Positions 226-50,615 of a stretch of 64,000 bases of DNA are shown piece by piece (the first letter of the stretch is position 1; each line of letters begins with the position of its first letter). The stretch lies in assembly GCA_030650425.1 (NCBI GenBank), contig JAUSED010000003.1:199903-263902 (forward strand), read 5' to 3'. The notes beneath the pieces were generated by a model that saw only the letters and a list, made by a program, of their open reading frames with translations, was not told where the DNA came from and ran no database searches. A program made the position numbers and the translations under genes. The DNA is from Candidatus Omnitrophota bacterium. GTDB taxonomy: Bacteria; Omnitrophota; Gorgyraeia; Gygaellales; Profunditerraquicolaceae.

Positions 226-2122
226 GATTCTCGGGGCAACCTTTAGGTTTCTTCCGGTTGGATGGAGCCTTTGCTTAGGCCGCAGGGCCGGGGATTGCTT
301 TTATTATTTCGACTTTAAGCATAAGGCGAGGAGCTACGCGAACATTAAATTTGCCGTAGGTAAAGAATTACCTCCCGCGAAAATCGCGAAACTCACCAAA
401 GAATTTTATCAGTCATTCGGGCAAAGTTTGATTGAGATATTCCTGATCCCTAAAGTAGATAAAGCCTATATGGATAAATATATACATATAGAGGGATTGG
501 AGAATATCTACAACGGTTTAAAAAAAGGTAAGGGAGTAATTCTTATCGCGATACACGCGGGAAGCTGGGAGTTGGCTAATATTATCTGCGCCAACCTCGG
601 TTTTCCGTTTTATCTTTTTATTAAGGATCAGGATTTCCCGCGTTTAAACGAATTACTGAATAAATACCGCCGGCAAAAAGGGTGCAAGATAATTGCTAAA
701 GAAGGGGGGCTCAAACAATTAATCGAAGCGCTTAAAAACAACTCGGCGGTGGGTATAACTTTGGATCAGGGCGGTAAGACAGGAGAGCTGGTGGATTTCT
801 TTGGCAGGAGCGCCTCGATGTCTACCGGCGGGATAAAACTGGCTTTAAAATACGGATGTCCGGTTGTTCCGGTATATTTTAAGCGGACCCGTGGCCCGAA
901 TGTGCAGGTATTGGTGGGAAAAGAGTTGGAATTAACCAAAACCGGAAATTCGGATACTGACCTGAAAGATAACCTGCGGAGATTCACTAAGTACTTCGAA
1001 GAATTAATCCGTAAGTACCCCAAAGAATATCTTTGGACCTACAAGATCTGGAAATATTCGGACCAGCGGAATATTCTTATCCTAAGCGATGGCAAGGCCG
1101 GGCATTCGCGCCAGTCAGAGGCTGTGGCTGAGATAGTTGTAGAGCGCCTGAAAAATAAAGGGATACAGGCAAAAGTTAATTTCATGGAAGTAAGGTTCAA
1201 AAATAAATTAGGCAAAACAATCCTTTCCTTAAGCAGTCTATTTACGGGAAAGTATCATTGTCAGGGGCGGCTTTGGTGCTTGAAGAAATCACTCAATGAA
1301 GATACATATAAAATGCTCATGCGTTTGAGCCCGGATATTATTATTTCTTCTGGTTCAGGGCTTGCGGCGGTTAACTTGGCGATTGCGCGTGAAAGCCTAA
1401 GCAAATCTATTCAGATTATGCGGCCGTCAATTTTGAGCGTGAAGAGATTTGATTTGGTGATTATGCCGCGGCATGACCATCCTCCGCAGAGAAAGAATAT
1501 AGTAGTTACCGCGGGGAGCCTTAATCTTGTAGAGGAACAATATCTTAAGCAAGAATCGGGTAAATTAATCCAGAGAGTAAATTTAAACCCGCAAGCCGGT
1601 TATGTCGGGGTATTAATAGGCGGGGATAGCAAGAGATTTGTCCTTGAGCATGACTTAATACGTAAAGTTATTGCTGAACTAAAAAAAGCCGCTGAGAAAA
1701 TCAACGCGGATATACTTTTGACTACTTCTCGCCGGACAAGTGCGGAAACTGAAGATTTGATAAAACAGGAGCTTAAAGATTATCCGCGCTGCAAACTTAT
1801 GGTTATTGCCAACGAGAAAAACATCCCGGAAGCAGTAGGGGGGATTTTAGGTCTAAGTAAGGTAATCGTGAGTTCTCCGGAGAGTATATCGATGATCTCT
1901 GAAGCAGTGAACAGCGCCAAACCAGTAGTAGTTTTTAGGGTAGGAGGTTTAAACAGGAAACATAGGGTCTTTGTTGAGAATTTATCCCGGAGTCAACATA
2001 TAATTCTAAGTGCAGTTGATTCTCTGGGGCAGAGAATAGAAGAAGCATGGCAGGATAAAGCTGCGGTAAATGTTTTAAGCGATAATGATTTAGTCGCTAA
2101 GGCGGTAGAAAAAATATTATGA
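179..2122 (+). CDS. lipid A biosynthesis lauroyl/myristoyl acyltransferase (LpxL/HtrB-like) N-domain fused to a DUF1022/ELM1-like C-domain
   Basis: The N-terminal ~300 aa match the LpxL/LPLAT family (FRFLPVGWSLCLGRRAGDCFYY..., IEGLENI, HAGSWELA). The C-terminal ~330 aa begin ILILSDGKAGHSRQSEAVAEIV, resembling the ELM1/DUF1022 family. Starts 47 nt inside the lpxK tail. Confidence 0.55.
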   Translation: MKSNFLIDYLACILFRILGATFRFLPVGWSLCLGRRAGDCFYYFDFKHKARSYANIKFAVGKELPPAKIAKLTKEFYQSFGQSLIEIFLIPKVDKAYMDKYIHIEGLENIYNGLKKGKGVILIAIHAGSWELANIICANLGFPFYLFIKDQDFPRLNELLNKYRRQKGCKIIAKEGGLKQLIEALKNNSAVGITLDQGGKTGELVDFFGRSASMSTGGIKLALKYGCPVVPVYFKRTRGPNVQVLVGKELELTKTGNSDTDLKDNLRRFTKYFEELIRKYPKEYLWTYKIWKYSDQRNILILSDGKAGHSRQSEAVAEIVVERLKNKGIQAKVNFMEVRFKNKLGKTILSLSSLFTGKYHCQGRLWCLKKSLNEDTYKMLMRLSPDIIISSGSGLAAVNLAIARESLSKSIQIMRPSILSVKRFDLVIMPRHDHPPQRKNIVVTAGSLNLVEEQYLKQESGKLIQRVNLNPQAGYVGVLIGGDSKRFVLEHDLIRKVIAELKKAAEKINADILLTTSRRTSAETEDLIKQELKDYPRCKLMVIANEKNIPEAVGGILGLSKVIVSSPESISMISEAVNSAKPVVVFRVGGLNRKHRVFVENLSRSQHIILSAVDSLGQRIEEAWQDKAAVNVLSDNDLVAKAVEKIL

Positions 2123-4202
2123 ATATCTTACAAATCTTACCAGAGCTTAATGTCGGCGGGGTTGAGACCGGAACTTTGGATCTCTCCAAATATTTAGTGC
2201 GCTTAGGGCATAAGGCAATAGTGGTCTCCGCGGGCGGCTCGCTGGTGAAGGATTTGGAGGCATTGGGAGGCGTTCATTACCAATTGCCCGTGCACAAAAA
2301 ATCTATTTTTTCGATGATTAAAGCGATTCCGCTTTTAATAGAGATTATCAAGAAAGAAAAAATCGATATCGTGCATGCGCGCTCCCGCGTGCCGGCCTGG
2401 ATCGCTTTTTTTGCCTGTCGCGAAACAAAAACCGTCTTGATCACTACCTGTCATGGCTATTATAAAAAACATCCGTTTAGTTATGTGATGGGTTGGGCCA
2501 AGCGGGTAATCGTTTTGAGTAATGTCATCGCCCGGCATATGATCGAAGACTTTAGTGTTCCGCACGAACGGATCAGGCTTATTCCGCGCAGCGTAGATCT
2601 GGAGAAGTTTAAATATTTTGATCCGGATAAAAAACGGGGAAAGGAATTTAATATCGGGATTATCGGCAGAATCACTCCGTTAAAAGGCCACCTCTATTTT
2701 ATTAAGGCCATGGCAAAAGCTGCCCGGGTTATCCCGCAGTTAAAGATTTGGATCGTAGGGGACGCCCCGAGTTCACGCCAAGCCTATAAAGAGCAGATCC
2801 AAGTATTAGTCAGAAGATTGGGGTTGGCTCATTGCACAGAGTTTTTGGGCACGCAAAAAAATATACCGGAGATCTTATCCAATTTAGATCTGGTGGTTCT
2901 GGCGACCACCACGCATGAGGCGTTTGGGAGGGTGATTGTTGAGGCGCAAGCCGCGGGTGTGCCGGTTGTCGCTACTGAAGTGGGTGGAGTGGTGGATATC
3001 ATCGAACACGGCCGCACAGGATTAATCGTTCCTCCGAGCGACCCCCAAAGCATGGCCGAGGCAGTGATCAAGATATTTAAGGATCCGGAGTTAGCGCGTA
3101 ATCTTAGCGAAGCAGCCTATCAAAAAGTCAAAGAGAAATACAATGTCGAGTTAATGGTTGATAACACGCTTAATGTTTATCAGGAGGCGTTGAGTAATTT
3201 TAGGCTTTTAATCATTAAGTTGAGTTCGTTGGGAGATCTCATTTTATCTACGCCGGGCTTGCGGGCGATAAGAGAGAAGTTTCCGCGCCACAAGATAAGT
3301 TTTCTGGTCGGAGAAGAATCTAAAGAACTACTCTTGAGGTCTCCTTATATAGACGAGTTGCTGGTGGTTAACTTAAAAAATAAAGATAAAGGCTTAAAAG
3401 GCCTGTTTAATATTGCCCGGATTCTAAGAAAGAAAAATTTTGATCTGGTCATTGACCTGCAGAATAACCGCGTCAGCCACCTGCTTTCTTTCTTCTCTTT
3501 AAGCCCTGACCGTTACGGCTATGATAACAAAAAATTCGGTTTCTTACTTAACCACAGGATCAAAGATGAAAAGCCCGCGCTGGATCCTGTGACGCATCAA
3601 TTTTGTGTCTTGAAGATGCTGGGGATAGACTTAAGGGATAACCGTCTGGAGTTATGGCCTGGCAAAGAAGACGAAGAATATATCGAAAATTTCCTGAGCA
3701 GGGAATGGTTGAGCGCTGACCAGAAAATCATCGGAATAAATATCAGCGCCAGTAAGAGGTGGTTGACTAAAGCTTGGCCAAAAGACCGTATTGCCAAGCT
3801 GTGCGATGAACTGGGGCTAAAAAACATCCGGGTTTTGATTACCGGTACAGAGAATGATGCGCAGGAAGCCAATGCTTTAACCGCGATGGTCAAGAATACC
3901 AAGATTATCAATGCCTGCGCCAAAACCAACGTGAATCAGTTAGCCGCGCTGATCAAACGTTGTTCTTTGTACATCTCGGCGGATTCCTCGCCTCTGCACA
4001 TAGCCGCGGCTGTGAACATACCGGTGATTGCCTTTTTTGGTCCGACTGACCCGGCAAGACATATGCCTCCGGCAAAACATTACGTAATTATTCGCAGAGA
4101 ATTGGAATGCAGCCCCTGTTATAAGCCTAAATGCAGGCATAAAAAGTGCATGGATATGATTACGGTTGAAGAAGTGTTGGAGGCAGTAGATAAATTACTT
4201 AG

Positions 4203-4206
<4 letters not shown>
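2119..4206 (+). CDS. fused glycosyltransferase: GT4 (N-terminal) + GT9 heptosyltransferase-like (C-terminal)
   Basis: GT4 motif EAFGRVIVEAQAAGVPVVATEVGGVVDIIEHGRTGLIVPP. The C-half shows the GT9 hallmark IIKLSSLGDLILSTPGLRAIREKFP and a CSPC/KPKC Cys-rich tail as in RfaF/RfaC-type enzymes. ATGA overlap with the upstream gene. Confidence 0.7.
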
Positions 4207-5284
<1,078 letters not shown>

Positions 5285-5306
<22 letters not shown>

Positions 5307-6109
5307 TTGTCGCCGCGTTACTCGCGGTTATCATATTTTCCTTTCTAAGTTTCGTCCGGCATAAATACGTTCTTCCGGTAATTATGTACCACTCCATTAA
5401 TCCGGATACGCAAAACAACAGCCTTTTGGTGGTTACTCCGGAGAATTTCCGCAGACAGATGCGTTTTTTAAAGGAGCATGATTACCATGTGGTTTCTCTT
5501 GAAGAGGCGGCTGATTTCATAAGAAATAAAAAAAGGCCTCCACCTCGCACAATCGCGATAACTTTTGATGATGGATATAAAGATAACTATACCTATGCCC
5601 TCCCTATACTTAAAGAATACAATTTTACGGCGACGATATTTATTGTAGTGAATGAAGTAGGGGTTCCTCCGGATAAAAAGCTCTCTTGGGATGAAATTCA
5701 GGCTATACAGAAATCAGGGCTGATTACCTTCGGTAGTCACACGATTGATCATCCTAATCTGGCGGAGGTTACTTCCAGCGAAACCATCAAAAACGAAATT
5801 CAGGGCTCAAAAAAGATAATCGAGGAGAAGTTGGGAAAGAAAGTAGGGGCCTTTAGTTATCCCAGCGGAAGATTCAGTAAAGCCGCCCGGCAGGCGGTGA
5901 TTGATGCCGGATATAAACTGGCTGTAGCTACTAATCCGGGGAAGAGAATACCCGATGACGATATATTCGTCATCAAGCGGATCAGAATCTCCAAGAATTG
6001 CGATAATTTGTTTATATTCTGGGTAGAGACAAGCGGCTATTATAATTTTATGAGGGAGAGCAAGGGGCAGAAAAATGGGCGCGGAAGCCAAGAAGATACT
6101 TATCTTTAA
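5285..6109 (+). CDS. polysaccharide deacetylase (CE4/NodB-homology)
   Basis: N-terminal TM helix; ITFDDGYKDNY (the TFDDG motif) and a GSHTIDHPNL His motif. Confidence 0.7.
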
Positions 6110-7094
6110 TGTTAACTGGCTGGGAGATGTTTTATTCTCTACGGCGGTAATCCGGAATATCCGGCGTAATTTTCCGAATAGCTTCTTGGCCTGTATTATA
6201 CCAGCTAGGTGTTATCCCGTCTTAAAGGGAAACCCGCATTTGGATGAAATAATTATTTTTGACGAGAAAGACCGGCATAAGGGTTTATTCGCCAGGTTAG
6301 GCTTTATCCGTAATCTTAAGAATAAGAAGTTCGATATGGTCTTTCTTTTACACAGGTCATTTAGCCGCGCGCTTATCTGCCGTCTCGCCGGGATACCGGA
6401 AAGAATAGGCCATTATACGAAAAAAAGGGCCTTCCTGTTGACCAAAAAGATCATCCCGCCGAAGAGGGATTCGCTTCATCGCATAGATTATTATCTGGAT
6501 ATTATTGAGCAGGCAGGGTTAAGGGTAGAAGACCGCTATCCGGAATTCTTTATCAGTACTGAAGATAAAGCCTTTGTGGAAGACTTTCTGAATAAAAACT
6601 CGGTTAAGCAAGATGATTTTATCGTGGCTATAAACCCGGGAGGAAACTGGCCGCCTAAACGCTGGCCTAAAGATTATTGGGTGGAATTAGCGGATAAGCT
6701 GATTGAAGATTCTGCTGCCAAGTTAATTATTACCGGATCAGTTAATGATTTGTCTTTAGCTGGTTACATTCGCGGAAAAATGCTGCATAAGCCTATAGTT
6801 GCCTGCGGGGTATTTAATCTAAAACAGCTTGGCGCGTTAGCCAAAAAAGCGGACCTGTTTATTACCGCTGATACCGGGCCTTTGCATATCGCTAACAGCG
6901 TGGGAGCGAAAAAAATAATCGCGCTCTTTGGCCCTACCTCGCCGGCAGTCACCGGGCCTTATCCGTCAAAAAACGTCACTATCCTGCAGAAGGACGTGGG
7001 CTGCGAGATTTCCTGCTATGAAGTAAATTGTAAAGATAACCGCTGCATGAAGGCGATCACGCCTGCCGACGTGCTCCAAGAAATAAAAAAATAA
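6075..7094 (+). CDS. glycosyltransferase family 9 (ADP-heptose:LPS heptosyltransferase-like)
   Basis: ILIFNVNWLGDVLFSTAVIRNIRRNFP; NPGGNWPPKRWP; C-terminal TADTGPLHIANSVG...ALFGPT. These are the classic RfaF/RfaC signatures. Confidence 0.75.
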   Translation: MGAEAKKILIFNVNWLGDVLFSTAVIRNIRRNFPNSFLACIIPARCYPVLKGNPHLDEIIIFDEKDRHKGLFARLGFIRNLKNKKFDMVFLLHRSFSRALICRLAGIPERIGHYTKKRAFLLTKKIIPPKRDSLHRIDYYLDIIEQAGLRVEDRYPEFFISTEDKAFVEDFLNKNSVKQDDFIVAINPGGNWPPKRWPKDYWVELADKLIEDSAAKLIITGSVNDLSLAGYIRGKMLHKPIVACGVFNLKQLGALAKKADLFITADTGPLHIANSVGAKKIIALFGPTSPAVTGPYPSKNVTILQKDVGCEISCYEVNCKDNRCMKAITPADVLQEIKK

Positions 7095-41504: not shown

Positions 41505-42624
41505 CAAACTATCCATTATAACATTGACTTGTCTGCTTGTGATTAGTATCTTTAGCCCTACTTATGCCTCCGAGACCGTGCGTATAGCGATTATCCAAGA
41601 CACTTCATCCCTAAGCCTTAAGATTAAAGGTTTCTTCCAAATCAGGGATTTAGAAAAGCATAAAATCATCTACCACGCTAAAAGCATCGAGACAACCGTA
41701 ACCACCTATAAAAGCGGGATTGTTATCGGAGGGATTAAACCGGCTTCAGATAAGCTCTTGATTGAGTCAGATGACCCTGAGGCCTTCCTGATTAATGGCA
41801 AGTCCTTCCGGGGGAATATCCAACTAATCAAGAAGAGCAATAATAAACTATTGGTGATTAATTGTATTGAGCTTGAGGATTATATTAAGGGAATTCTGTA
41901 TCATGAATCTTCGCATTATTGGCCGATGGAGGCTTTAAAGGCGCAGGCGATTATCTCGCGTACTTACGCGCTTTATCAAATGCAGGAAAATAGGCGTAAA
42001 GATTTTGATCTGACCAGCGACATTTATTCTCAGGTTTATGGAGGAGAAGCTTCTGAGCGTTTTCGCACGAACAAGGCAGTGGATGAGACGCAAGGTAAAG
42101 CTCTCTTTTTTAAGGGAAAGATCATCCCGGCTTATTTTCACGCCACCTGCGGCGGGCATACGGAAGACGCGGCTCTCCTTTGGAATATCGATTTAGCGCC
42201 TTTAAAAGGAGTAGTCTGCCCTTATTGCAAAGAATCACCGCATTTTAACTGGCATTATGATTTTGGGCTAAAGGATATAGAAAAGAAGTTATCCGCTAAA
42301 GGATTTAAGCTAAAAAATATAACTAATCTAGGGATAGAAGGAAAAGATGCTTCGGGAAGGATTACTAATCTCATCATTAATTCAGAGCAGGGAGAAACTA
42401 AAGTCTCGGCTAAAGATTTTCGCGAGACGATCGGCCCAAATCTTATCCGGAGCACTAATTTTTCCGTGGCCATAGAGGGAAAAGACGCGGTTTTTGAAGG
42501 GATTGGCTGGGGACATGGCGTGGGGCTTTGCCAGTGGGGCGCCTATTTTATGGCTAAGGATGGCAAGAGCGCCGAAGAGATCTTAAAATATTACTATCCG
42601 GGGACAAATGTTAAAACTTTCTAA
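41497..42624 (+). CDS. SpoIID/LytB-domain protein (cell-wall amidase enhancer family)
   Basis: Signal peptide; YFHATCGGHTEDA motif. Confidence 0.7.
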   Translation: MNNKLSIITLTCLLVISIFSPTYASETVRIAIIQDTSSLSLKIKGFFQIRDLEKHKIIYHAKSIETTVTTYKSGIVIGGIKPASDKLLIESDDPEAFLINGKSFRGNIQLIKKSNNKLLVINCIELEDYIKGILYHESSHYWPMEALKAQAIISRTYALYQMQENRRKDFDLTSDIYSQVYGGEASERFRTNKAVDETQGKALFFKGKIIPAYFHATCGGHTEDAALLWNIDLAPLKGVVCPYCKESPHFNWHYDFGLKDIEKKLSAKGFKLKNITNLGIEGKDASGRITNLIINSEQGETKVSAKDFRETIGPNLIRSTNFSVAIEGKDAVFEGIGWGHGVGLCQWGAYFMAKDGKSAEEILKYYYPGTNVKTF

Positions 42625-43600
42625 TTTCGATTATCCCTTACCTAAAGAATTAATCGCCCAATATCCGCTTAAGGAGAGGGAGAGCGCGCGGCTGCTGGTG
42701 GTTAATCGGAGCGATAATTCAATCGAGCATAAAATATTTAAAGATCTAACGGGTTACCTTAAACAAAGCGATCTTTTAGTTCTAAATGATACCAAGGTGC
42801 TTACCTGCCGCTTGATGGGCCATAAGGCTACTGGCGGAAAAGTCGAGATTTTATTAACGAAACGTAAGAGCGGCTCTACTTTTGACGCGCTGATCCAGCC
42901 TAGCCGTACCAAAATCGGCGAAAAGATTTTTTTCGGTAAAAATGAAATCGCGGGAGTGGTCACTAACCGCAAAGAGATTACTTTTCAGCCAAAAGATGCT
43001 GATAGAATCTATGGGTTTGGAGAGGTTCCGCTTCCGCCTTATATAAAAAGAGAGCCTGAAGAGCTGGATAAAGAATATTATCAGACGGTTTATGCGGATA
43101 GGGAAGGCGCTATCGCTTCTCCGACCGCGGGCCTGCATTTTACCAAGGATTTATTAAAGCAAATAGAAGCGCAAGGGGTAAATATCGCGCATTTAACTTT
43201 GCATGTCGGCTTGGGCACATTTAAGCCGGTCATCACTGATGATATTACTGAGCATCAGATGGAGCCGGAGACTTTTCAGGTTTCCAAAAGCGCGCAGGAG
43301 AAGATAGAAGCAGCGCGCAAGAACAAATCGCGGATCATTGCCGTAGGGACAACGTCGCTGAGGGCATTAGAGGCTTATGCCGCAGGCGCCAAAGAAGGCC
43401 AGACTAATCTGTTTATTTACCCGGGTTATAAATTTAAGCTGGTCAATTGCCTGCTGACGAATTTCCATCTGCCCAAGACCACGCTTTTTATGCTCGTCTG
43501 CGCCTTTGGCGGAGAGAAATTAATCAAACAAGCGTATCAGGAAGCACTGGATAAGAAATACCGATTTTACAGCTACGGCGACGCAATGTTGATAATTTAA
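42608..43600 (+). CDS. queA: S-adenosylmethionine:tRNA ribosyltransferase-isomerase
   Basis: LSNFDYPLPKELIAQYPLKERESARLLVV; C-terminal NFHLPKTTLFMLV. Confidence 0.9.
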   Translation: MLKLSNFDYPLPKELIAQYPLKERESARLLVVNRSDNSIEHKIFKDLTGYLKQSDLLVLNDTKVLTCRLMGHKATGGKVEILLTKRKSGSTFDALIQPSRTKIGEKIFFGKNEIAGVVTNRKEITFQPKDADRIYGFGEVPLPPYIKREPEELDKEYYQTVYADREGAIASPTAGLHFTKDLLKQIEAQGVNIAHLTLHVGLGTFKPVITDDITEHQMEPETFQVSKSAQEKIEAARKNKSRIIAVGTTSLRALEAYAAGAKEGQTNLFIYPGYKFKLVNCLLTNFHLPKTTLFMLVCAFGGEKLIKQAYQEALDKKYRFYSYGDAMLII

Positions 43601-43663: not shown

Positions 43664-43867
43664 GGGGTCATTTGCTCTAATTGCTCTTTCATGCACCTGT
43701 CAATTTTCTCGCTCAGCACGATTTTTTAACGCCAATGATCTTTCAATGCTCAAGCTCCATTGGCTAAAATCGTGATTCGCTCGAAACTTGCCAGGTTCAT
43801 TTATAAGAATAGGGATCTAGTTTCTCTTTCCAAAAGTAAAGTAAGCAGGTCTAAGAAAGCAGGGCAA

Positions 43868-44206
43868 ATGGTGAAATATATGCCAGATCCAAATACTATA
43901 ATGGCAATGACATCAGTTTTTATGCTTGTTATTGTAGGAATCCAGGTATGGATTTCTATAAAACAAAACAAATTATTAGAAATGCAGTCGAGAATATCCA
44001 AAGCTTCAACTGTAAGTGCTATTTTTAATTTGATACAGGAATCAGATAAGATGTTATTAGATAATATAACTGTAATAGAAAAATATAGAGATGAAAAGGG
44101 TATGCCTAAAGAATTAGCTTTGGCAATGGTAACCGAATTTAAGAAATGCCGTGATGAGAGCGTAAAGAAACACAAAGAGATGCTTGAGGTGTTAGGAGAA
44201 AAATAG
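43868..44206 (+). CDS. hypothetical small membrane-anchored protein
   Basis: Start chosen at ATG 43868 (MVKYMPDPNTIMAMTSVFMLVIVGIQVWI, one TM) rather than the track's 43760. AT-rich, Lys-rich. Confidence 0.35.
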   Translation: MVKYMPDPNTIMAMTSVFMLVIVGIQVWISIKQNKLLEMQSRISKASTVSAIFNLIQESDKMLLDNITVIEKYRDEKGMPKELALAMVTEFKKCRDESVKKHKEMLEVLGEK

Positions 44207-44248
44207 AAGACATGCCTATGGGGCTTTATGCAAGCACTTTTTTGGCAC

Positions 44249-44279
44249 AAAATAGTAGATTATTATAATCTACTATTTT
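44249..44279 (+). terminator. AT-rich near-perfect palindrome AAAATAGTAGATTAT|TATAATCTACTATTTT after the 44206 stop
   Basis: Seen directly; followed by a T/A-rich tract. Confidence 0.35.
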
Positions 44280-44325
44280 ATTAACAAGTTAACGCGGTAA
44301 GACTTTATAAGCGGAAGAAATAACT

Positions 44326-45036
44326 ATGCAATGTGCACTTTGTCAAAATACAAAAAAACTTTGTAAATCCCATATAATTCCCGAATTCTTTTACAAAGAG
44401 TTATATGATAAAAAACATCGTTTTAAAGGAGTATATTCAATCTGGGGGAAAATCGTATTTCACTTTAAGGGATTTCGCGAACGTCTACTCTGTGAAGACT
44501 GTGAAAAAAAATTAAGTAGTTACGAAAAATACCTGAGGGACGTTCTTCTTGAACAATATCCTAAAATTATGGAACTAAAAGTCGGAGATAAGTTATATTT
44601 TAACGTCAATTATAAAAAAATCAGGCTTTGTTATCTTTCAATTCTTTGGCGTATGAGTATTGCTACTAAACGATTTTTTAAGAATTTTTCAATTCCTGAA
44701 TATGAGGGAAAACTTAAAGATTTACTTAATAGGGATGATCCCGGTAATCCTAATGAGTTTGGTTACATTGCTATAGTCCCCTTAATGAATAATTCTTTTA
44801 AAAGAGCTTGGTTTATTGATCCTCATCTGGGAAAAATGAATGGTGATGATATTTGCTTCGTTATGTTTGGGGGTATTTTATATATTTTCTTTATTACGTT
44901 TACTAATAATCCAAGGGCTGCAGAAGCATTCATACAAAGAGAAAATAAGTGGTTGATAACCGCCGTTGATGTAAAAGATACCCTTTTAGATAAATATATT
45001 AGAAATGCTCAAAAAATAATAAAAAAGTCTCAATGA
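44326..45036 (+). CDS. hypothetical protein with N-terminal Cys-rich HNH-like motif (candidate nuclease)
   Basis: C-x2-C-x8-SHIIPE ... LLCEDCEKKL resembles the zinc-ribbon/HNH arrangement (CxxC...HH(V/I)IP...LCxxCH). The remaining ~170 aa have no recognisable family. Very AT-rich. Confidence 0.45.
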   Translation: MQCALCQNTKKLCKSHIIPEFFYKELYDKKHRFKGVYSIWGKIVFHFKGFRERLLCEDCEKKLSSYEKYLRDVLLEQYPKIMELKVGDKLYFNVNYKKIRLCYLSILWRMSIATKRFFKNFSIPEYEGKLKDLLNRDDPGNPNEFGYIAIVPLMNNSFKRAWFIDPHLGKMNGDDICFVMFGGILYIFFITFTNNPRAAEAFIQRENKWLITAVDVKDTLLDKYIRNAQKIIKKSQ

Positions 45037-45075
45037 TGGGCACATTTTGAGCACAAGCTGTTCTTGAAGCATTCT

Positions 45076-45107
45076 AGGGACACGACATTTAATTCCTCGG
45101 AGAAAAG
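45076..45107 (+). repeat. intron-less paralog of the group II intron homing site (AGGGACA|CGACATTTAATTCCTCGGAGAAAAG)
   Basis: Matches the joined exons of the occupied site (…GGGGACA [intron] CGATACTTAATTCCTCGGAGAAAAG) over ~40 nt. Confidence 0.55.
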
Positions 45108-45166
45108 ATAATTAAGTAATGTGTCCCCGGAAATTCTGTGTATAGTAACCTTTACTTTCTTAACCT

Positions 45167-45649
45167 ATGTATTTCAATACTACGCTAGGAGCTAAAATAA
45201 ACAATAAGAAACCAACTAGTTTAGCTGGATTATTTTTTATTGGACTAATTTTTATAGCTGTATTTTTTATAGGAGGGAATGCTTCATTATTAACTCAAAA
45301 TATAGCTAACTGGCCTAAAGCTAAAGCCGAAGTTATTTCCGTTGAACCTGAAATCGTTTGTGAAACACCAGAAAGATCTAGCGCTTGCTACACTATATTT
45401 TTTATTAAATATTCATACAACGTAAATGGAAAAGAATACATTAACCAAATGAAACAAGAATATGTAACTAATTATATTCCTGGAAAAACATTTGATGTAC
45501 TTTATAAACAAGACAATCCTCAGCTTGTTTTTAAAAAGGATGACCTTCCCGGTAAATTCAAACTTTATCTATCCTTAATAATTGGATTGATTATCGTCAT
45601 CCCTATTATGTTTTTTTGGAAACAGAAACGAAACAGACGTGTTCCCTAA
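45167..45649 (+). CDS. DUF3592-like two-TM membrane protein
   Basis: TM1, then ...WPKAKAEVISVE...YSYNVNGKEYIN...GKTFDVLYKQDNPQ..., then TM2. This is the DUF3592 topology and motif pattern. Confidence 0.5.
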   Translation: MYFNTTLGAKINNKKPTSLAGLFFIGLIFIAVFFIGGNASLLTQNIANWPKAKAEVISVEPEIVCETPERSSACYTIFFIKYSYNVNGKEYINQMKQEYVTNYIPGKTFDVLYKQDNPQLVFKKDDLPGKFKLYLSLIIGLIIVIPIMFFWKQKRNRRVP

Positions 45650-45822
45650 CACTTAGCAATTTCAATAGTTGTAAATAAAATCTCCGCTCTTTGATAAATT
45701 AAAACTGTATTCCTTCCAGAGGGAATACATCTGCCAAATCTTCCGGCGCTAAAACCGCATCAGGCCTACGATGGAGACGGCGGAAGGGTAAAGAAGACAA
45801 CCGGCTCACCCGCTAACCCGCT

Positions 45823-45905
45823 GAAGAATTCCGTGAAGAATTCCGGGCAGAAGAATTCCCAATTCCGGGCAATTCCGCAATTCCGGCAATTCCGCAATTC
45901 AGGGG
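45823..45905. repeat. degenerate tandem array (~8 units) of AATTCCG/GAAGAATTCCG immediately 5' of the group II intron
   Basis: gaagaattccgt gaagaattccggg cagaagaattccc aattccgggc aattccgc aattccggc aattccgc aattcagggg. Confidence 0.7.
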
Positions 45906-46402
45906 ACAGTGCGCCAAGAAAGCTAATATGAACAGGCCGTAATAAACGGCACGGTCAAAGACTAACCATCAGGCCGTTACTATAGCTCTGCGTACAGCGA
46001 GGTAATAAGCTGTATGAAGCCAGAGTGAAGGAGATTGTCAACCGTAACGCAAGTGAAGGCAGTAAGTCCCGAAATGAATACGTCGCAGTGGGCTAATGGT
46101 TTGTCCCCTATGAAGCCAGCAGTATCACGCGCGTAAAGGTGAGTGCGTGATGTCCTGCCGGGATTGTAAGCCACAGTGGGCAATCAATATGTTTGTATTG
46201 GAACTTGTGAGAACCAACGTGTTTCCCATAAGTCGTCAACGAGCTTCTAAAGAAGCAAGGAGATGATAAGGCACGTTGGTAGTCGGACTAACTCATAGTA
46301 CTCAATGATATTGGGAAAGCCAATAACAAGGGGAAGGGGTTAGCAGTTAAAGTTGCACGAGGCTAAGGAAACATTGAGCGGACTCAAAGTCTGTGGAAAG
46401 CA

Positions 46403-47701
46403 ATGGAAACAAAATTAGACTCACTAAGTCAGTATGCCGCAAAAGAACCTCAGCGGAAATTCGTTAACATAATGTATCAGGTTAACGAAAGTTCTTTGAA
46501 GGCGAACTTCTATCTGCTCGGCAGGAAACGTGCAGTAGGAGTGGATGGCGTAGGTTGGCAGGAATATGGAGAAGGATTAGATGCCAACATCGATAACCTC
46601 TTGGAACGGATGAAGAGAATGGGCTATCGGCCGCAACCTGTAAGACGGGTGTATATACCTAAAGGCAGGAATGATAAAAGGCCTTTGGGTATCCCCACGG
46701 TAGAAGATAAGGTTGCGCAGAAGACAATGAGCCGGATTATGGAAGCGGTTTATGAACAAGACTTCTATGAATTCTCATACGGATTCCGTCCGGGAAAGAG
46801 TTGTCATCAGGCGCTTAAGCGAGTCGGCGAAATTATCAACTTTAAGCCAATCAACCATATTATCGAAGCGGACATCAAAGGGTTCTTCGATAACGTAGGA
46901 CACGAAAAGCTAATGGAATTGGTAAGAAGGAGAATTACCGATAAGAAATTCCTGCGTTATATCGTGCGCTTCCTGAAAGCCGGATATATTGAATCCGGTT
47001 TGTTAAAGGAAGCAAAACAAGGCACTCCGCAGGGAGGAAACTTAAGCCCGTTATTGGCTAACATATTTCTGCATTATGTGCTGGATGAATGGTTTGAAAA
47101 GGAGTTGAAACCGACTCTTGTAGGCCAGTGTTATTTGGTGAGGTATTGCGACGATTTTGTTATCTTGACGCAATATCAGCAAGAGGCAAAGACGGTAATG
47201 ACCCGGCTGCAAGAGAGATTCGAGGCATATGGCCTTGAACTCAACACGGAGAAATCAGGAGTAATAAGTTTTGGCCGCTATGAGCGGGAAAATGCCGAAA
47301 AACAGCTAAGGCGGGCAAATACTTTTGATTTCTTAGGGTTTACGCATTACTGCGCTTTGACACGTAAAGGCAAATTCAAGGTTAGTCGAAGGACAAGTGC
47401 TGAAAGATTCCGTAAGAGCCTCAGAGAAATATATCTCTGGCTCAAGGCTTTCAAGAATACGATTAGCATTAAGGAGTTATGGACACAGCTTGTAAGTAAA
47501 TTAAGAGGGCATTATCAATATTATGGTGTGAGTGAAAATCTTAGGAGGTTGCAAGAATTTTACCACCACATAGAAGATATGGCCTTTAAATTGCTCAACC
47601 GGCGGTGCGATAAGAAGTCCTTCAACTGGCGGGGATTCTGCAAATACTTGCAACGGTTTCCATTACCCAAGCCGCACATAGTATGTAACTTTTACGCATA
47701 A
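46403..47701 (+). CDS. group II intron-encoded reverse transcriptase/maturase (RT domains 0-7 + X; no En domain evident)
   Basis: RPLGIPTVEDKVAQ (RT1), FRPGKSCHQA (RT2), QGTPQGGNLSPLLANIFL (RT4), YCDDFVIL (RT5 YxDD), maturase X tail. Confidence 0.9.
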   Translation: METKLDSLSQYAAKEPQRKFVNIMYQVNESSLKANFYLLGRKRAVGVDGVGWQEYGEGLDANIDNLLERMKRMGYRPQPVRRVYIPKGRNDKRPLGIPTVEDKVAQKTMSRIMEAVYEQDFYEFSYGFRPGKSCHQALKRVGEIINFKPINHIIEADIKGFFDNVGHEKLMELVRRRITDKKFLRYIVRFLKAGYIESGLLKEAKQGTPQGGNLSPLLANIFLHYVLDEWFEKELKPTLVGQCYLVRYCDDFVILTQYQQEAKTVMTRLQERFEAYGLELNTEKSGVISFGRYERENAEKQLRRANTFDFLGFTHYCALTRKGKFKVSRRTSAERFRKSLREIYLWLKAFKNTISIKELWTQLVSKLRGHYQYYGVSENLRRLQEFYHHIEDMAFKLLNRRCDKKSFNWRGFCKYLQRFPLPKPHIVCNFYA

Positions 47702-47727
47702 CCGAATACTGATGGAAACTTACTGAA

Positions 47728-47760
47728 GAGCCGTATGCGGGAAATCCGCAAGTACGGTTC
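47728..47760 (+). ncRNA. group II intron catalytic domain V
   Basis: Canonical 33-34-nt hairpin with AGC and GAAA tetraloop. Confidence 0.8.
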
Positions 47761-47883
47761 TGTGAGGGGCTCTGAAATACGGGCCTACTCGACCGATACT
47801 TAATTCCTCGGAGAAAAGGAACGAACGGGGGGCGTCCCAAAAAGGGACACCCTTGGTTTAGCTGATGCGATGAAGAATCGTAA

Positions 47884-48300
47884 CTAATCCCTATAAAATC
47901 CTATTCTGCGCTTGGGTTTTTCCGGGGGAGCCATAAGCTGGCGGATGGCTTCAAATATCTCTTTGATCGTCTGGTTGTGTTCGGCATATCTCTTCTCAAG
48001 TGATTCAATCTTTACAGCTAATTCTTTATGCGTTAAAAGAATTAGCCTTAGTTTAGTAAAGGCCCGCATAATTAATATATTTACTTGAATGTCCCTTTCA
48101 CTATTTAGCACACTTGAGAGCATAGCCACTCCTTGTTCGGTAAAGACATAAGGTAGATATTTAATGTTTTGGCCTTGTTTCAAGGACGCAAAATGCGACC
48201 TTGAATTTAAGATCACATTTTGTGATCTTAAAGAATCCAATTCTTCATTTGTAATTTGAAACATGAAATCATGGTGAAAAGCGGTATTAGTTCTTTCATT
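47884..48300 (-). pseudogene. 5'-truncated ORF6N-domain gene remnant
   Basis: FQITNEELDSLRSQNV...YLPYVFTEQGVAMLSSVLNSERDIQVNILIMRAF matches the ORF6N core. Homology (..FHHDFMFQ..) continues upstream of the ATG to an in-frame stop at 48301-48303. The usual first ~40 aa of the domain are absent. Confidence 0.6.
48210..48228. repeat. palindrome P1 AGATCACA-TTT-TGTGATCT (TCACA-N3-TGTGA core), inside the ORF6N remnant
   Basis: Seen directly; encodes RSQNVIL in the remnant. Confidence 0.7.
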
Positions 48301-48379
48301 TTATTCTCGTCTCTACTATAATAGACGTAAGATAAGGTAAAATCTAACAAAGAATTATTTAAATAACAAGGCAAATGCA

Positions 48380-48398
48380 ATGTTTGAACTAATTCAGC
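48380..48398 (+). repeat. orphan copy of tgt 5' end (ATGTTTGAACTAATTCAGC); 18/19 identical to tgt start at 49476-49494
   Basis: Direct comparison of the two sites. Confidence 0.8.
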
Positions 48399-48403
48399 CT
48401 AAT

Positions 48404-48430
48404 CTTGAAGTCACAAATTGTGACTTCAAG
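48404..48430. promoter_or_regulatory. palindrome P2 CTTGAAGTCACA-AAT-TGTGACTTCAAG (12-bp arms)
   Basis: Seen directly, in the intergenic region upstream of the 48531 gene. Confidence 0.5.
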
Positions 48431-48468
48431 ATTTAAAGTGAAAAATAGACGCTGAACGTATTGTTCAA

Positions 48469-48487
48469 GATCGCAATTTGTGATCTC
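48469..48487. promoter_or_regulatory. palindrome P3 AGATCGCA-ATT-TGTGATCT; near-copy of P1 including flanks (TTCAAGATC...ATCTCAAAG)
   Basis: Seen directly, ~45 nt upstream of the GTG start at 48531. Confidence 0.5.
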
Positions 48488-48530
48488 AAAGGTTATCGGA
48501 AACGCAGACACTACTCAAAGGGAGGGAAAG

Positions 48531-49001
48531 GTGAAAAAGTATATTATTTTTCTCTTATTTTTCCTGGCTTTGAATATTAACGTTTATTGCGGCCAGGAAA
48601 GCAGGATTGAGTTGACTGATGGCAGCGTGCTTAACGGAGAAGTAACTTCTTTAGCCAGCGGCACTTATACTATCAACACCGCTTCTATGGGCGTAATAAA
48701 AATTGACGCGGCAAAGGTCGCTAAAATTGAATCAGTGAAATCCTCCGCGCTTAGTTCAGCAATTAATCTTACACCGGCACAAATTAACAGCTATAAGCAA
48801 AAAATTATGGGTAATCCGGATGCAGCCGCCGCAATCAAAAGTCTATCTGCTAATCCTCAGATTAAGGCGTTAGCGGAAGATCCGGAAATTGTCAATGCCG
48901 CCAAGTCCGGGAATATCCAAGAATTGTTCAGTAACAAAAAGTTTACGGATGTTTTAGAAAGCCCTGAGATACAAGAAACAGCTAAGAAAATTAAGCAATA
49001 G
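48531..49001 (+). CDS. hypothetical secreted protein with NP/DP (STI1-like) repeats
   Basis: GTG start with ggaggg RBS; signal peptide KKYIIFLLFFLALNINVYCG; repeats NPDAAAAIK / NPQIKALAEDPEIVNAAK / SPEIQETAKK. Confidence 0.5.
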   Translation: MKKYIIFLLFFLALNINVYCGQESRIELTDGSVLNGEVTSLASGTYTINTASMGVIKIDAAKVAKIESVKSSALSSAINLTPAQINSYKQKIMGNPDAAAAIKSLSANPQIKALAEDPEIVNAAKSGNIQELFSNKKFTDVLESPEIQETAKKIKQ

Positions 49002-49015
49002 CAAGGAGAGATGTT

Positions 49016-49480
49016 ATGGGTAAGAAGATAAAGCGGATAATCGCTAAAGAAGGGTTGATCATTATCGCCATCGCGGCGATAATGTATATTTTTAAGACAT
49101 TCGTGCCCTCTTTCACGTTCCCTTATCCGAAAGTGAAATTAGCATTCCAGGATGGAACCTCGAATATTATAGAGATCTATCCGGAGATGACTACCTCTGA
49201 GCTCGCGGGTAAGATCGGCCCAAGCGGGTTGATCAAGAAATATCATTGCCCAACCCCTGAACTTATCTCCAAGCGGATCGATAAATTCATCCAGGAGAAC
49301 AAAAAGACTTCAGCGCTGGTTGATAAAAAGTGTGTGAATGAAAAACAGCTCTATCTGTATAGGGCATACTTTAATTTCCTGTTTCAACCTTTGCCTTTTA
49401 GGACATTAACTATCTATCTTTTCTTATTACTTATCCGTTTCATTGGCTGGGCGGTCAGGGTATTGAATAAAAATGTTTGA
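49016..49480 (+). CDS. hypothetical membrane protein (N- and C-terminal TM helices)
   Basis: RBS aggagag; stop overlaps the tgt ATG (ATGTTTGA). Confidence 0.45.
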   Translation: MGKKIKRIIAKEGLIIIAIAAIMYIFKTFVPSFTFPYPKVKLAFQDGTSNIIEIYPEMTTSELAGKIGPSGLIKKYHCPTPELISKRIDKFIQENKKTSALVDKKCVNEKQLYLYRAYFNFLFQPLPFRTLTIYLFLLLIRFIGWAVRVLNKNV

Positions 49481-50615
49481 ATTAATTCAGCAAGATAAAA
49501 ATAGCGGGGCGAGGCTGGGAAAGCTGACTACGGAGCATGGGGTAATCAATACGCCTTGTTTTATGCCTGTTGGGACGCACGCGACCATCAAAGGGCTTTA
49601 TCCTAAGGATGTGGAAGAGGCAGGCGCGGAAATTATGCTCTCTAATACCTATCATTTGTTCTTACGGCCGGGAATGGAGATTATCCGTAAAGCCAAGGGA
49701 TTACACAACTTTATTGCGTGGAAAAAGCCGATTCTTACGGATAGCGGTGGTTATCAGGTGTTTAGTTTAGCGCTTTTAAGGAAGCTAAGCGATAAAGGCG
49801 TGGAGTTTCAGTCGCATATCGATGGATTTAAACATTTCCTGACTCCTGAAGATGTAATCGACATACAACAGGATTTAGGCTCGGATATTATGATGCCGCT
49901 GGATGAATGTGTGCATTACCCCTGCGGAAAAGATCAGGCGGAAGTAGCGATGAAGCGCACGATCAATTGGGCTAAACGTTCGCATAAGCATCTAGAAGAG
50001 CATAAAAAGCATGGTCCAACCAAGAAGCAGCTCCTTTTTGGTATTGTGCAGGGCGCGACCTACGAAGACCTGCGTACTGAATGCGCCAAGGAATTAACCG
50101 ATATTGATTTCGATGGCTTTAGCATTGGCGGAGTTTCTGTTGGCGAACCCAGCGATTTAATCTATAATATATTATCTTTTAGCGCGAAATTACTTCCTCA
50201 GCATAAGCCGCGTTATGCTATGGGCATAGGTTATCCGCCGGATATCATCGAGGCAGTGGAGCGAGGGATTGATATGTTTGATTGTGTGGTTCCTACCCGT
50301 TACGGCAGGAATGGAACCGCTTTTACCAGTACCGGAAAGATAATTATCAGGAACGCTCCCTTTGCCGAAGATTTTAGGGCACTCGATGCTAAATGCGGCT
50401 GCTATACCTGTAAGACTTTCAGCCGGGCATACCTGCGCCATTTGTTTAACGCGCAGGAGATGCTCGGTTTGACCTTACTTTCTTTACACAATGTTTATTT
50501 CTTTTTGGATTTGGCGCGTAAGATCAGAGAGGCAATTCGGCAGGATAGGTTTAGTGACTTCAAAAAAGAATTCTTGAGTCAGTATAATAGTTTGATAGGG
50601 GACACTTTCCTTTAA
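49473..50615 (+). CDS. tgt: queuine tRNA-ribosyltransferase
   Basis: HGVINTPCFMPVGTHATIKGL; LTDSGGYQVFSL; zinc site CGCYTCKTFSRAYLRHL. Confidence 0.9.
   Translation: MFELIQQDKNSGARLGKLTTEHGVINTPCFMPVGTHATIKGLYPKDVEEAGAEIMLSNTYHLFLRPGMEIIRKAKGLHNFIAWKKPILTDSGGYQVFSLALLRKLSDKGVEFQSHIDGFKHFLTPEDVIDIQQDLGSDIMMPLDECVHYPCGKDQAEVAMKRTINWAKRSHKHLEEHKKHGPTKKQLLFGIVQGATYEDLRTECAKELTDIDFDGFSIGGVSVGEPSDLIYNILSFSAKLLPQHKPRYAMGIGYPPDIIEAVERGIDMFDCVVPTRYGRNGTAFTSTGKIIIRNAPFAEDFRALDAKCGCYTCKTFSRAYLRHLFNAQEMLGLTLLSLHNVYFFLDLARKIREAIRQDRFSDFKKEFLSQYNSLIGDTFL

Follow-up and report, generated by a model that had tools for sequence, protein, structure and literature searches.

In nucleases of the His-Me finger group, the core strands are joined by a loop that varies greatly and may hold extra secondary structure, zinc sites often stabilise the fold and zinc-stabilised treble-clef versions have been described; McrA belongs to the same group (PMC5714182). 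Elsewhere, Rst_DUF4238, a single-gene protein from P2/P4 hotspots, has been described as a defence system (PMC9122126), and DUF3592 domains, the function of which is unknown, occur in LXG polymorphic-toxin loci (PMC12482557). Here we analysed a 64,000-nucleotide (nt) stretch, referred to below as the window, of a metagenome-assembled genome (MAG) of Candidatus Omnitrophota (contig JAUSED010000003.1, positions 199,903 to 263,902). Two adjacent open reading frames (ORFs) in this window, here designated Q and D, encode a cysteine-rich protein that carries no functional annotation and a DUF3592 protein, respectively (Table 1). An initial annotation had put forward as plausible that the two genes, in this lineage at least, make up a module for abortive infection or toxicity in which Q serves as a nuclease-like sensor and D as the membrane effector. 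Our analysis leads to a different view, namely that Q and D are probably two unrelated, separately acquired single-gene cassettes and not a functional pair, Q being a solitary nuclease-like protein and D an orphan of a toxin cassette. The proposed new defence module thus appears not to be real, and a false lead can be stopped.

To follow the two genes beyond this locus, we scanned species-representative genomes, which yielded 233 Q relatives across many phyla. Eighty of the loci were examined, and 76 of these contained the 78 homologues analysed below. None of the 78 has a DUF3592 neighbour, and no D-like neighbour was detected by phmmer, by a hidden Markov model of the D family, by a scan for the architecture with two transmembrane segments or by a Pfam check of two architectural candidates. 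Conversely, Q is absent from all six D loci with readable context, each of which is an Rhs cassette. The initial annotation had itself suggested such a co-localisation survey as a check on the module, and the outcome goes against it: the Q/DUF3592 pairing was absent in the other genomes examined. The nearest relatives carry each gene as an ORF-only unit, and the copy of Q with the highest identity, in locus L090, is followed by a different gene. In addition, neither protein matches any model in the defence-system database PADLOC-DB 2.0: Q, D and the ORF upstream of Q gave no match at E ≤ 1, and the only match was a truncated ORF6N gene (47884-48264, PDC-S05). The statement that DUF3592 is repeatedly seen in phage-defence operons did not stand up either: PADLOC gave no match, and in the literature consulted we found no link of this domain to phage defence, its only substantive mention there concerning the LXG loci.

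What speaks for a module is the local arrangement, which the initial annotation had described accurately. Q and D lie on the same strand, 130 nt apart, and both are AT-rich, the GC content being 0.31 at 44001-45000 and 0.37 at 45001-46000 as against 0.42-0.47 elsewhere in the window. No terminator was detected in the spacer, so that co-transcription of the two genes in this genome is possible. The pair also sits among mobile elements, within a variable island of approximately 5.9 kb flanked by queA (42608-43600) and tgt (49473-50615), which further contains a group II intron, the truncated ORF6N/PDC-S05 gene and an insertion at whose boundary the first 20 nt of tgt are duplicated. Set against the distribution of both genes in other genomes, we regard a functional Q/D module as very improbable; the best explanation of their adjacency is that separate cassettes accumulated in the variable queA-tgt island.

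Q belongs to a very large family with a broad distribution and no database model. The ORF and its motif, C-x2-C-x8-SHIIPE...LLCEDCEKKL, are as originally reported, and the motif is conserved in the family. The N-terminus of the protein reads M-Q-C3-A-L-C6-x8-S15-H-I-I-P-E20, followed further on by L54-L-C56-E-D-C59-E60-K-K-L. In 54 aligned homologues, H16, I17, I18, E20, Y27, G49, L54, L55, C56, C59, E60 and R109 are invariant, C3, C6, S15, P19, Q47, K48, E52 and W108 are conserved at 90% or more, and Y23 and S105 are also nearly invariant. Since it is conserved across these homologues, the Cys/His motif is not a chance occurrence. A word-indexed search returned 55 relatives, which are about 240 aa long and all lack a Pfam domain. 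When the family profile was compared with 1.84 billion cluster representatives (50% identity), 8,617 matched at E ≤ 1e-3 and 1,970 at E ≤ 1e-30; among the best 150 matches listed, almost all are 230-280 aa long and align from end to end. Q has no match in Pfam, NCBIfam, PADLOC or the sequences of the Protein Data Bank (PDB), and it matches three PHROG families of unknown function. The C-terminal region of approximately 150-170 aa is, as previously noted, unassignable: it has no match in the same four collections, and its consensus retrieves no Pfam family.

The 78 homologues are found in a wide variety of settings, and cultured carriers of the family include Pseudomonas botevensis (L072), Nitrosomonas oligotropha (L068), Methylocystis (L045) and Ramlibacter humi (L033). 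Clustering of predicted neighbours at positions -3 to +3 revealed no recurrent neighbour family, and among 138 immediate neighbours, mostly genes of ordinary metabolism and housekeeping, no Pfam family occurs more than twice. Matches to defence models are scattered among the neighbours (two Type III methyltransferases, two ParE toxins and two nucleotidyltransferases). The homologues have on average a GC content 9 points below the rest of their locus, and for 81% of them the deficit exceeds 3 points; in the flanking 1.5 kb it is only 2 points. Because the drop is largely confined to the gene, a typical Q homologue is a single foreign gene in native DNA. Copies were also located on mobile elements, namely in an Acinetobacter phage, beside a methyltransferase and RusA, and on a Rickettsiales plasmid, beside a resolvase. 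A DNA search of E. coli genomes returned no Q homologue.

The closest relative, L090, illustrates how narrowly the shared unit is delimited. Its 86% DNA identity to the window is confined to 44303-45056, which comprises the ORF and approximately 25 nt on each side, and the flanks are unrelated, with a PIN toxin gene upstream of the copy and an unrelated 112-aa membrane protein downstream. A 1-nt deletion in a run of eight A residues splits the gene in L090. Between Q and this copy, dN/dS is 0.29 over 235 codons, from which we conclude that Q is under purifying selection. As to the deletion itself, an assembly error, gene decay and slipped-strand switching are all conceivable. Two further ideas were considered and rejected. 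An integron-type cassette would require an attC element, and there is no room for an element of that size because identity to L090 stops about 20 nt beyond the Q stop codon. The upstream ORF (43760-44206) is not a conserved partner of Q, since the genes next to Q in L085 and in L090 are not its homologues.

Mobility of this kind raises the possibility of homing: Q would then be a selfish gene for a free-standing HNH endonuclease, which cuts a conserved neighbouring gene in genomes lacking Q, and would be copied in by repair. The combination of a catalytic finger with a second domain resembles the architecture of homing enzymes. Sharing restricted to the ORF and about 25 nt on each side, and single AT-rich genes embedded in DNA of native composition, both speak for this reading. 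Moreover, some Q homologues abut conserved genes: four upstream neighbours overlap the start of the homologue by 4 nt, the three identifiable ones being pyrG, mutL and the gene for a thiamine pyrophosphate-dependent enzyme, and in a copy located between ruvB and queA, the latter overlaps the end of the homologue by 4 nt. Decayed or split copies also exist, in L090 and in L056, where the gene (6001-6657) is divided into ORFs of 103 and 106 aa, and one deltaproteobacterial contig (CAWBOS010000010.1; L041 and L054) carries two Q-family genes 1.3 Mb apart, so that paralogy and decay both occur in the family. However, the occurrence of the same Q lineage, at 86% DNA identity, between unrelated genes in two genomes is contrary to site-specific homing, and no preferred target gene is apparent across the 78 loci. 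Q is also rare in viral contigs, with three loci among the 2.9 million contigs of IMG/VR compared with 233 in cellular genomes, and the low dN/dS ratio indicates that the gene is maintained. On balance, we consider it unlikely that Q is such a homing endonuclease.

The copy between ruvB and queA (L067:4660-7718) is from an Anaerolineales MAG and has a GC content of 37% in a genome of 55%. In the window, too, Q is found shortly after queA, within a ruvB...queA...tgt region; this likeness may be a coincidence (approximately 5%, by a rough estimate) or may reflect a preferred neighbourhood. A functional link between Q and the queuosine genes was set aside, L067 being the only extra case among the 78 homologues. 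The two closest full-length relatives, with 55-56% protein identity, in L081 and L085, are each followed by an ORF of 57-61 aa that overlaps a 147-aa DUF6036 nucleotidyltransferase gene (L081:982-1549 and L085:3770-4334); these two ORFs may constitute a toxin-antitoxin-like pair of their own, or else a partner of Q specific to this clade.

The initial annotation described Q as HNH-like with unusual spacing. To assess this, we predicted its structure from the family alignment with AlphaFold2 and compared the family with HNH profiles. The predicted model is confident (predicted local distance difference test score, pLDDT, 94.8; predicted template modelling score, pTM, 0.91) and comprises a knuckle at C3/C6, a strand (12-16) ending in S-H, a hairpin (32-47), a second strand (51-56) and a helix (57-82) at the start of which lies C56-x2-C59-E60; beyond this finger, a helix-rich linker leads to a five-stranded alpha/beta C-terminal domain. 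Four cysteines thus frame the finger in a treble-clef pattern, C56 and C59 being invariant and the exceptions at C3 and C6 being N-terminally truncated sequences, and they would be expected to bind zinc. HNH_5 (PF14279, gathering cut-off 27.5 bits) is the only Pfam family that recurs among Q-family members, with weak matches in four of 54 (best E 0.011); one member has a weak Endonuclease_7 match, and one divergent member aligns to the second half of the HNH_5 model. When the family-specific insert (approximately residues 24-48) was excised in silico from the consensus, HNH_5 matched in one stretch with 28.5 bits (E 1.5e-6; model positions 1-44 of 56). An alignment of the Q family to T4 endonuclease VII with hhalign, for which the endonuclease VII sequence was confirmed to be identical to 1e7d, places C3, C6, H16, C56, C59 and E60 opposite C23, C26, H43, C58, C61 and N62, at a P-value of 0.09, which is not significant.

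Several observations weigh against assigning the finger to this group, and against a nuclease with a role in defence. Q itself has no HNH_5 match in the Pfam scan, and the native family consensus scores 18.7 bits, below the cut-off, over model positions 1-22 only. The insert-excised consensus was constructed artificially and scored best among four variants of the consensus, so its score constitutes support and not proof. Foldseek comparisons with the PDB gave nothing significant for either the full model (best E 0.23) or the separately predicted N-terminal domain (pLDDT 87; best E 4.5), and profile searches of PDB chains with the full and the insert-excised alignments produced only C2H2 zinc-finger noise. 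In key positions the finger is also non-canonical: a Ser (S15) precedes the His in place of Asp, Glu or His, and Glu60 occupies the position directly after the second CxxC that carries a metal-binding Asn or His in canonical HNH enzymes, which means that the finger could be non-catalytic. Finally, no evidence from neighbouring genes clearly points Q to defence, and PADLOC contains no model of Q. Besides these points, a structure search of BFVD retrieved one match, an uncharacterised phage homologue. A deep search with the insert-excised profile recovered only truncated fragments of the same family and no insert-less intermediates annotated as HNH_5. Rare Q relatives have Asp after the CxxC, and metal chemistry at these positions, though non-canonical, is plausible.

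These findings could be accommodated if the finger were a non-catalytic treble clef and Q either bound nucleic acid or protein, or was an enzyme with its active site in the C-terminal domain. Treble-clef fingers have many roles other than that of a nuclease (PMC5714182). The absence of significant HNH matches for native sequences and of a structural neighbour, together with S-H and C-x2-C-E in place of D/E/H-H and C-x2-C-N/H, fit this alternative, and a solitary gene without an immunity partner is more easily understood if its product is harmless. On the other hand, the polar invariants H16, E20, E52, E60 and R109 lie exactly where a His-Me site needs them, and HNH_5, the one recurrent family, exceeds its threshold once the insert is excised. 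Weighing both sides, we view a non-catalytic finger as unlikely, yet as a serious rival. The N-terminal domain is probably a derivative of the His-Me finger, and the chance that it is catalytically active appears to be about even. The HNH-like character given by the initial annotation therefore survives in the four-Cys treble-clef pattern and in the excised consensus, although the native scores are low and Foldseek finds no HNH structure.

We favour the interpretation that Q is a self-contained metal-dependent nuclease. Zinc coordinated by C3, C6, C56 and C59 would hold the finger together, bringing the strand that ends in His16 next to the helix that starts with Glu60. H16 would then be the general base, the metal would be bound by E60, possibly together with E20 and E52, and R109 of the C-terminal domain might contact phosphate. 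The C-terminal domain would set substrate specificity or regulation, which could explain how Q exists without a partner or immunity gene; lacking such a partner, a solitary nuclease must be specific or gated. Two models of its role fit this interpretation, one being host defence of the restriction or abortive-infection type and the other the selfish, free-standing homing-type endonuclease discussed above. A more far-reaching version of the first, in which the whole family would be a widespread single-gene immune or exclusion nuclease with a remodelled finger (an H-E-E site and an inserted hairpin) and a C-terminal domain of novel fold that senses phage DNA modification or an infection cue, strikes us as improbable; gating of the nuclease by the C-terminal domain would in that case account for the lone travel of Q without an immunity partner. 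If Q is active, it extends the known variation of His-Me nucleases and adds a candidate solitary nuclease, whether defensive or selfish, with a confidently predicted fold that has no Foldseek neighbour among solved structures.

D, by contrast with Q, has relatives in a recurrent genetic context. As the initial annotation had it, D is a DUF3592-type protein with two hydrophobic segments: it matches DUF3592 (PF12158) over residues 53-119 with 29.1 bits (gathering cut-off 25.3), the segments start at residues 15 and 127, one at each end, and the identical protein is named DUF3592 domain-containing protein by NCBI. Ten close relatives were retrieved, and in six of six with readable context the gene order is the C-terminus of an Rhs toxin, a small protein and the DUF3592 protein. 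The end of the Rhs core is annotated as RHS_repeat/YD-shell in two long contigs and is marked by the motif ..NNPVNWxDPFG. in the five that reach it. The toxins share a hydrophobic domain of approximately 110 aa (..VPWLVPINMILSP.TGV.MPPGSGTAI.QFVQRS.P.I..II.DSR..GWPF), which in one case is attached to a different, Gly-rich trunk; different trunks on a common C-terminal domain are a hallmark of polymorphic toxins. In L086, the domain corresponds to the last ~110 residues encoded at 299-4618. The product of the second gene is helical, conserved and 79-98 aa long. Pfam contains neither this small protein nor the toxin domain. The cassette of Rhs toxin domain, 79-98-aa protein and DUF3592 protein is apparently undescribed.

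A tblastn search detected no trace of the toxin or of the small protein in the window, and the DNA similarity between the loci of D relatives and the window does not extend beyond the D ORF, which makes D an orphan copy. The toxin domain has the look of a membrane-embedded segment, for which a membrane protein with two helices would be a reasonable immunity factor, and D is most likely, as we infer from the cassette, a membrane-located immunity or accessory protein against this hydrophobic toxin when it is delivered by neighbouring cells. This assignment is tempered by the layout of the cassettes, in which either of the two genes downstream of the toxin may encode immunity. DUF3592, a domain with no assigned function, is nevertheless tightly linked in this clade to an undescribed Rhs toxin domain, making membrane immunity a directly testable hypothesis.

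Table 1. Coordinates of the features discussed, given as positions in the window unless a locus is named.
Feature	Coordinates	Strand	Description
Gene Q	44326..45036	+	236 aa; NCBI MDO8661980.1, 'hypothetical protein'; large unannotated family of ~240-aa proteins
Q N-terminal domain, residues 1-84	44326..44577	+	Treble-clef zinc finger pattern, putative HNH_5 / His-Me type
Q family-specific insertion, residues ~24-48	44395..44469	+	Predicted beta-hairpin (32-37, 42-47) between core strands; conserved Y27, Q47, K48
Q C-terminal alpha/beta domain, residues 85-236	44578..45033	+	S105-x-L-W108-R109 motif, G124, R131, G183
A8 homopolymer within Q	44504..44511	+	L090 lacks 1 nt here, which splits its copy of the gene
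Unit common to Q and L090	44301..45060	+	Q ORF plus ~25 nt on each side
Gene D	45167..45649	+	160 aa; DUF3592 protein with N-terminal and C-terminal hydrophobic helices; probable orphan third gene of an Rhs toxin cassette
D-type cassette loci	L086:299-5462, L087:1-5462, L088:1-2070, L089:2-1487, L098:1-1171, L099:2-1157		Rhs toxin C-terminus, small protein, DUF3592 protein
Sigma-70-like promoter match	44242..44279	+	TTGGCA-16-TATAAT, 11/12 positions
Unoccupied copy of intron insertion site	45071..45107	+	Within a 50-nt hairpin between Q and D
AATTCCGC-type tandem repeats	45854..45904	+	Form the 5' exon immediately before the intron
Group II intron	45909..47793	+	Reverse transcriptase/maturase ORF 46403-47701, without endonuclease domain; context, not part of Q or D

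Upstream of Q, a perfect palindrome of 15 + 15 nt (44249-44279) overlaps a match to the sigma-70 promoter consensus. The total number of promoter-like matches in the region is at chance level, so that this is a consensus match only, and the stretch is not common to Q and L090. Judged by its sequence, it could possibly serve Q as its own promoter or operator, or act as a terminator hairpin for the upstream ORF. That ORF begins with a 41-nt stretch (43762-43801) that is 90% identical, in inverted orientation, to the contig end of L090 (1595-1635, minus strand), and it also forms one arm of a 35-nt inverted repeat in the window (43691-43725 / 43766-43800); it may represent a conserved gene start or the end of an element.

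The group II intron downstream of D matches the RNA models RF02005 (98.5 bits) and RF00029 (61.8 bits), and its ORF matches RVT_1 (132 bits) and, weakly, GIIM. An intron-less copy of its insertion site between Q and D, already pointed out in the initial annotation, is borne out: ATTCTAGGGACA|CGACATTTAATTCCTCGGAGAAAAG is identical to the exon junction of the intron at 33 of 37 positions, and the 19-nt core of the site occurs twice in the window where 0.03 occurrences are expected. The 37-nt site thus forms a direct repeat that brackets D, empty on one side and occupied on the other (45897-45908 + 47794-47818). The idea that Q acts in trans as the endonuclease of this endonuclease-less intron, for which the intron RNA scan covered the window region, was dropped, the Q family occurring in thousands of contexts with no recurrent neighbour.

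Directly after the 3' exon of the intron lies the ORF6N gene on the minus strand, whose product matches the PADLOC candidate PDC-S05 only from about model position 60 onwards and is apparently N-terminally truncated. A palindrome of approximately 30 nt (TTnAAGATCnCAAATTGTGAnCTTnAAG) is present in three copies (48206-48233, 48401-48433 and 48464-48491), one inside the 5' end of the ORF6N gene and two in the spacer beyond, and resembles operators or a small repeat element. The 20-nt copy of the tgt start (AATGTTTGAAyTAATTCAGC) is at 48379-48398, 1,093 nt upstream of the real one (49472-49491). The pair brackets two small ORFs (48480-49001 and 49016-49480), an arrangement that looks as if an insertion had entered tgt at its 5' end and restored the gene start.

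Compared with described systems, the finger of Q has the greatest likeness to HNH_5 and other group-1 His-Me finger nucleases with a four-Cys treble clef, such as T4 endonuclease VII, with which it shares the predicted order of elements: a CxxC knuckle, a strand whose last residue is the His at the catalytic position, with (I/V)-I-P after it, a second strand, a CxxC at the start of a helix and a potential metal ligand. Q differs from them in its beta-hairpin insert of approximately 25 residues, the Ser before the His and the Glu after the CxxC, as well as in its sub-threshold native scores, the lack of an HNH structure in Foldseek results and a 150-aa C-terminal domain without known relative. 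A similar size, a single-gene layout and an N-terminal motif of the H-[YI]-[VI]-P-x-F-[YF] type are presumably shared with Rst_DUF4238, a tentative lead; neither Q, the family consensus nor any of the 54 members has a Pfam DUF4238 or PADLOC match, and DUF4238 is not known to carry the four-Cys finger. Solitary modification-dependent (Type IV) restriction nucleases of the McrA type resemble Q in being single genes with an HNH-type finger and a second domain, without a methyltransferase or immunity partner, sporadically distributed and foreign in composition. In McrA, however, the domain order is reversed and the second domain is not homologous, Q has no match among the PADLOC models, and the likeness carries no evidence that Q reads modified bases. 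Free-standing HNH homing endonucleases such as T4 Mob and I-HmuI share with Q the ORF-only mobility, the abutment on conserved genes, the patchy distribution and the decayed copies, whereas Q is mostly cellular, has no common target gene and occurs as the same lineage in unrelated flanks. For D, the comparison is with Rhs toxin/immunity cassettes: although the D-type cassettes have two conserved genes after the toxin, and a toxin domain and small protein that are both outside Pfam, the homologues of D follow the end of an Rhs core and a C-terminal domain found on different trunks, as is typical of these systems, and a lone D conforms to the pattern of an orphan immunity gene.

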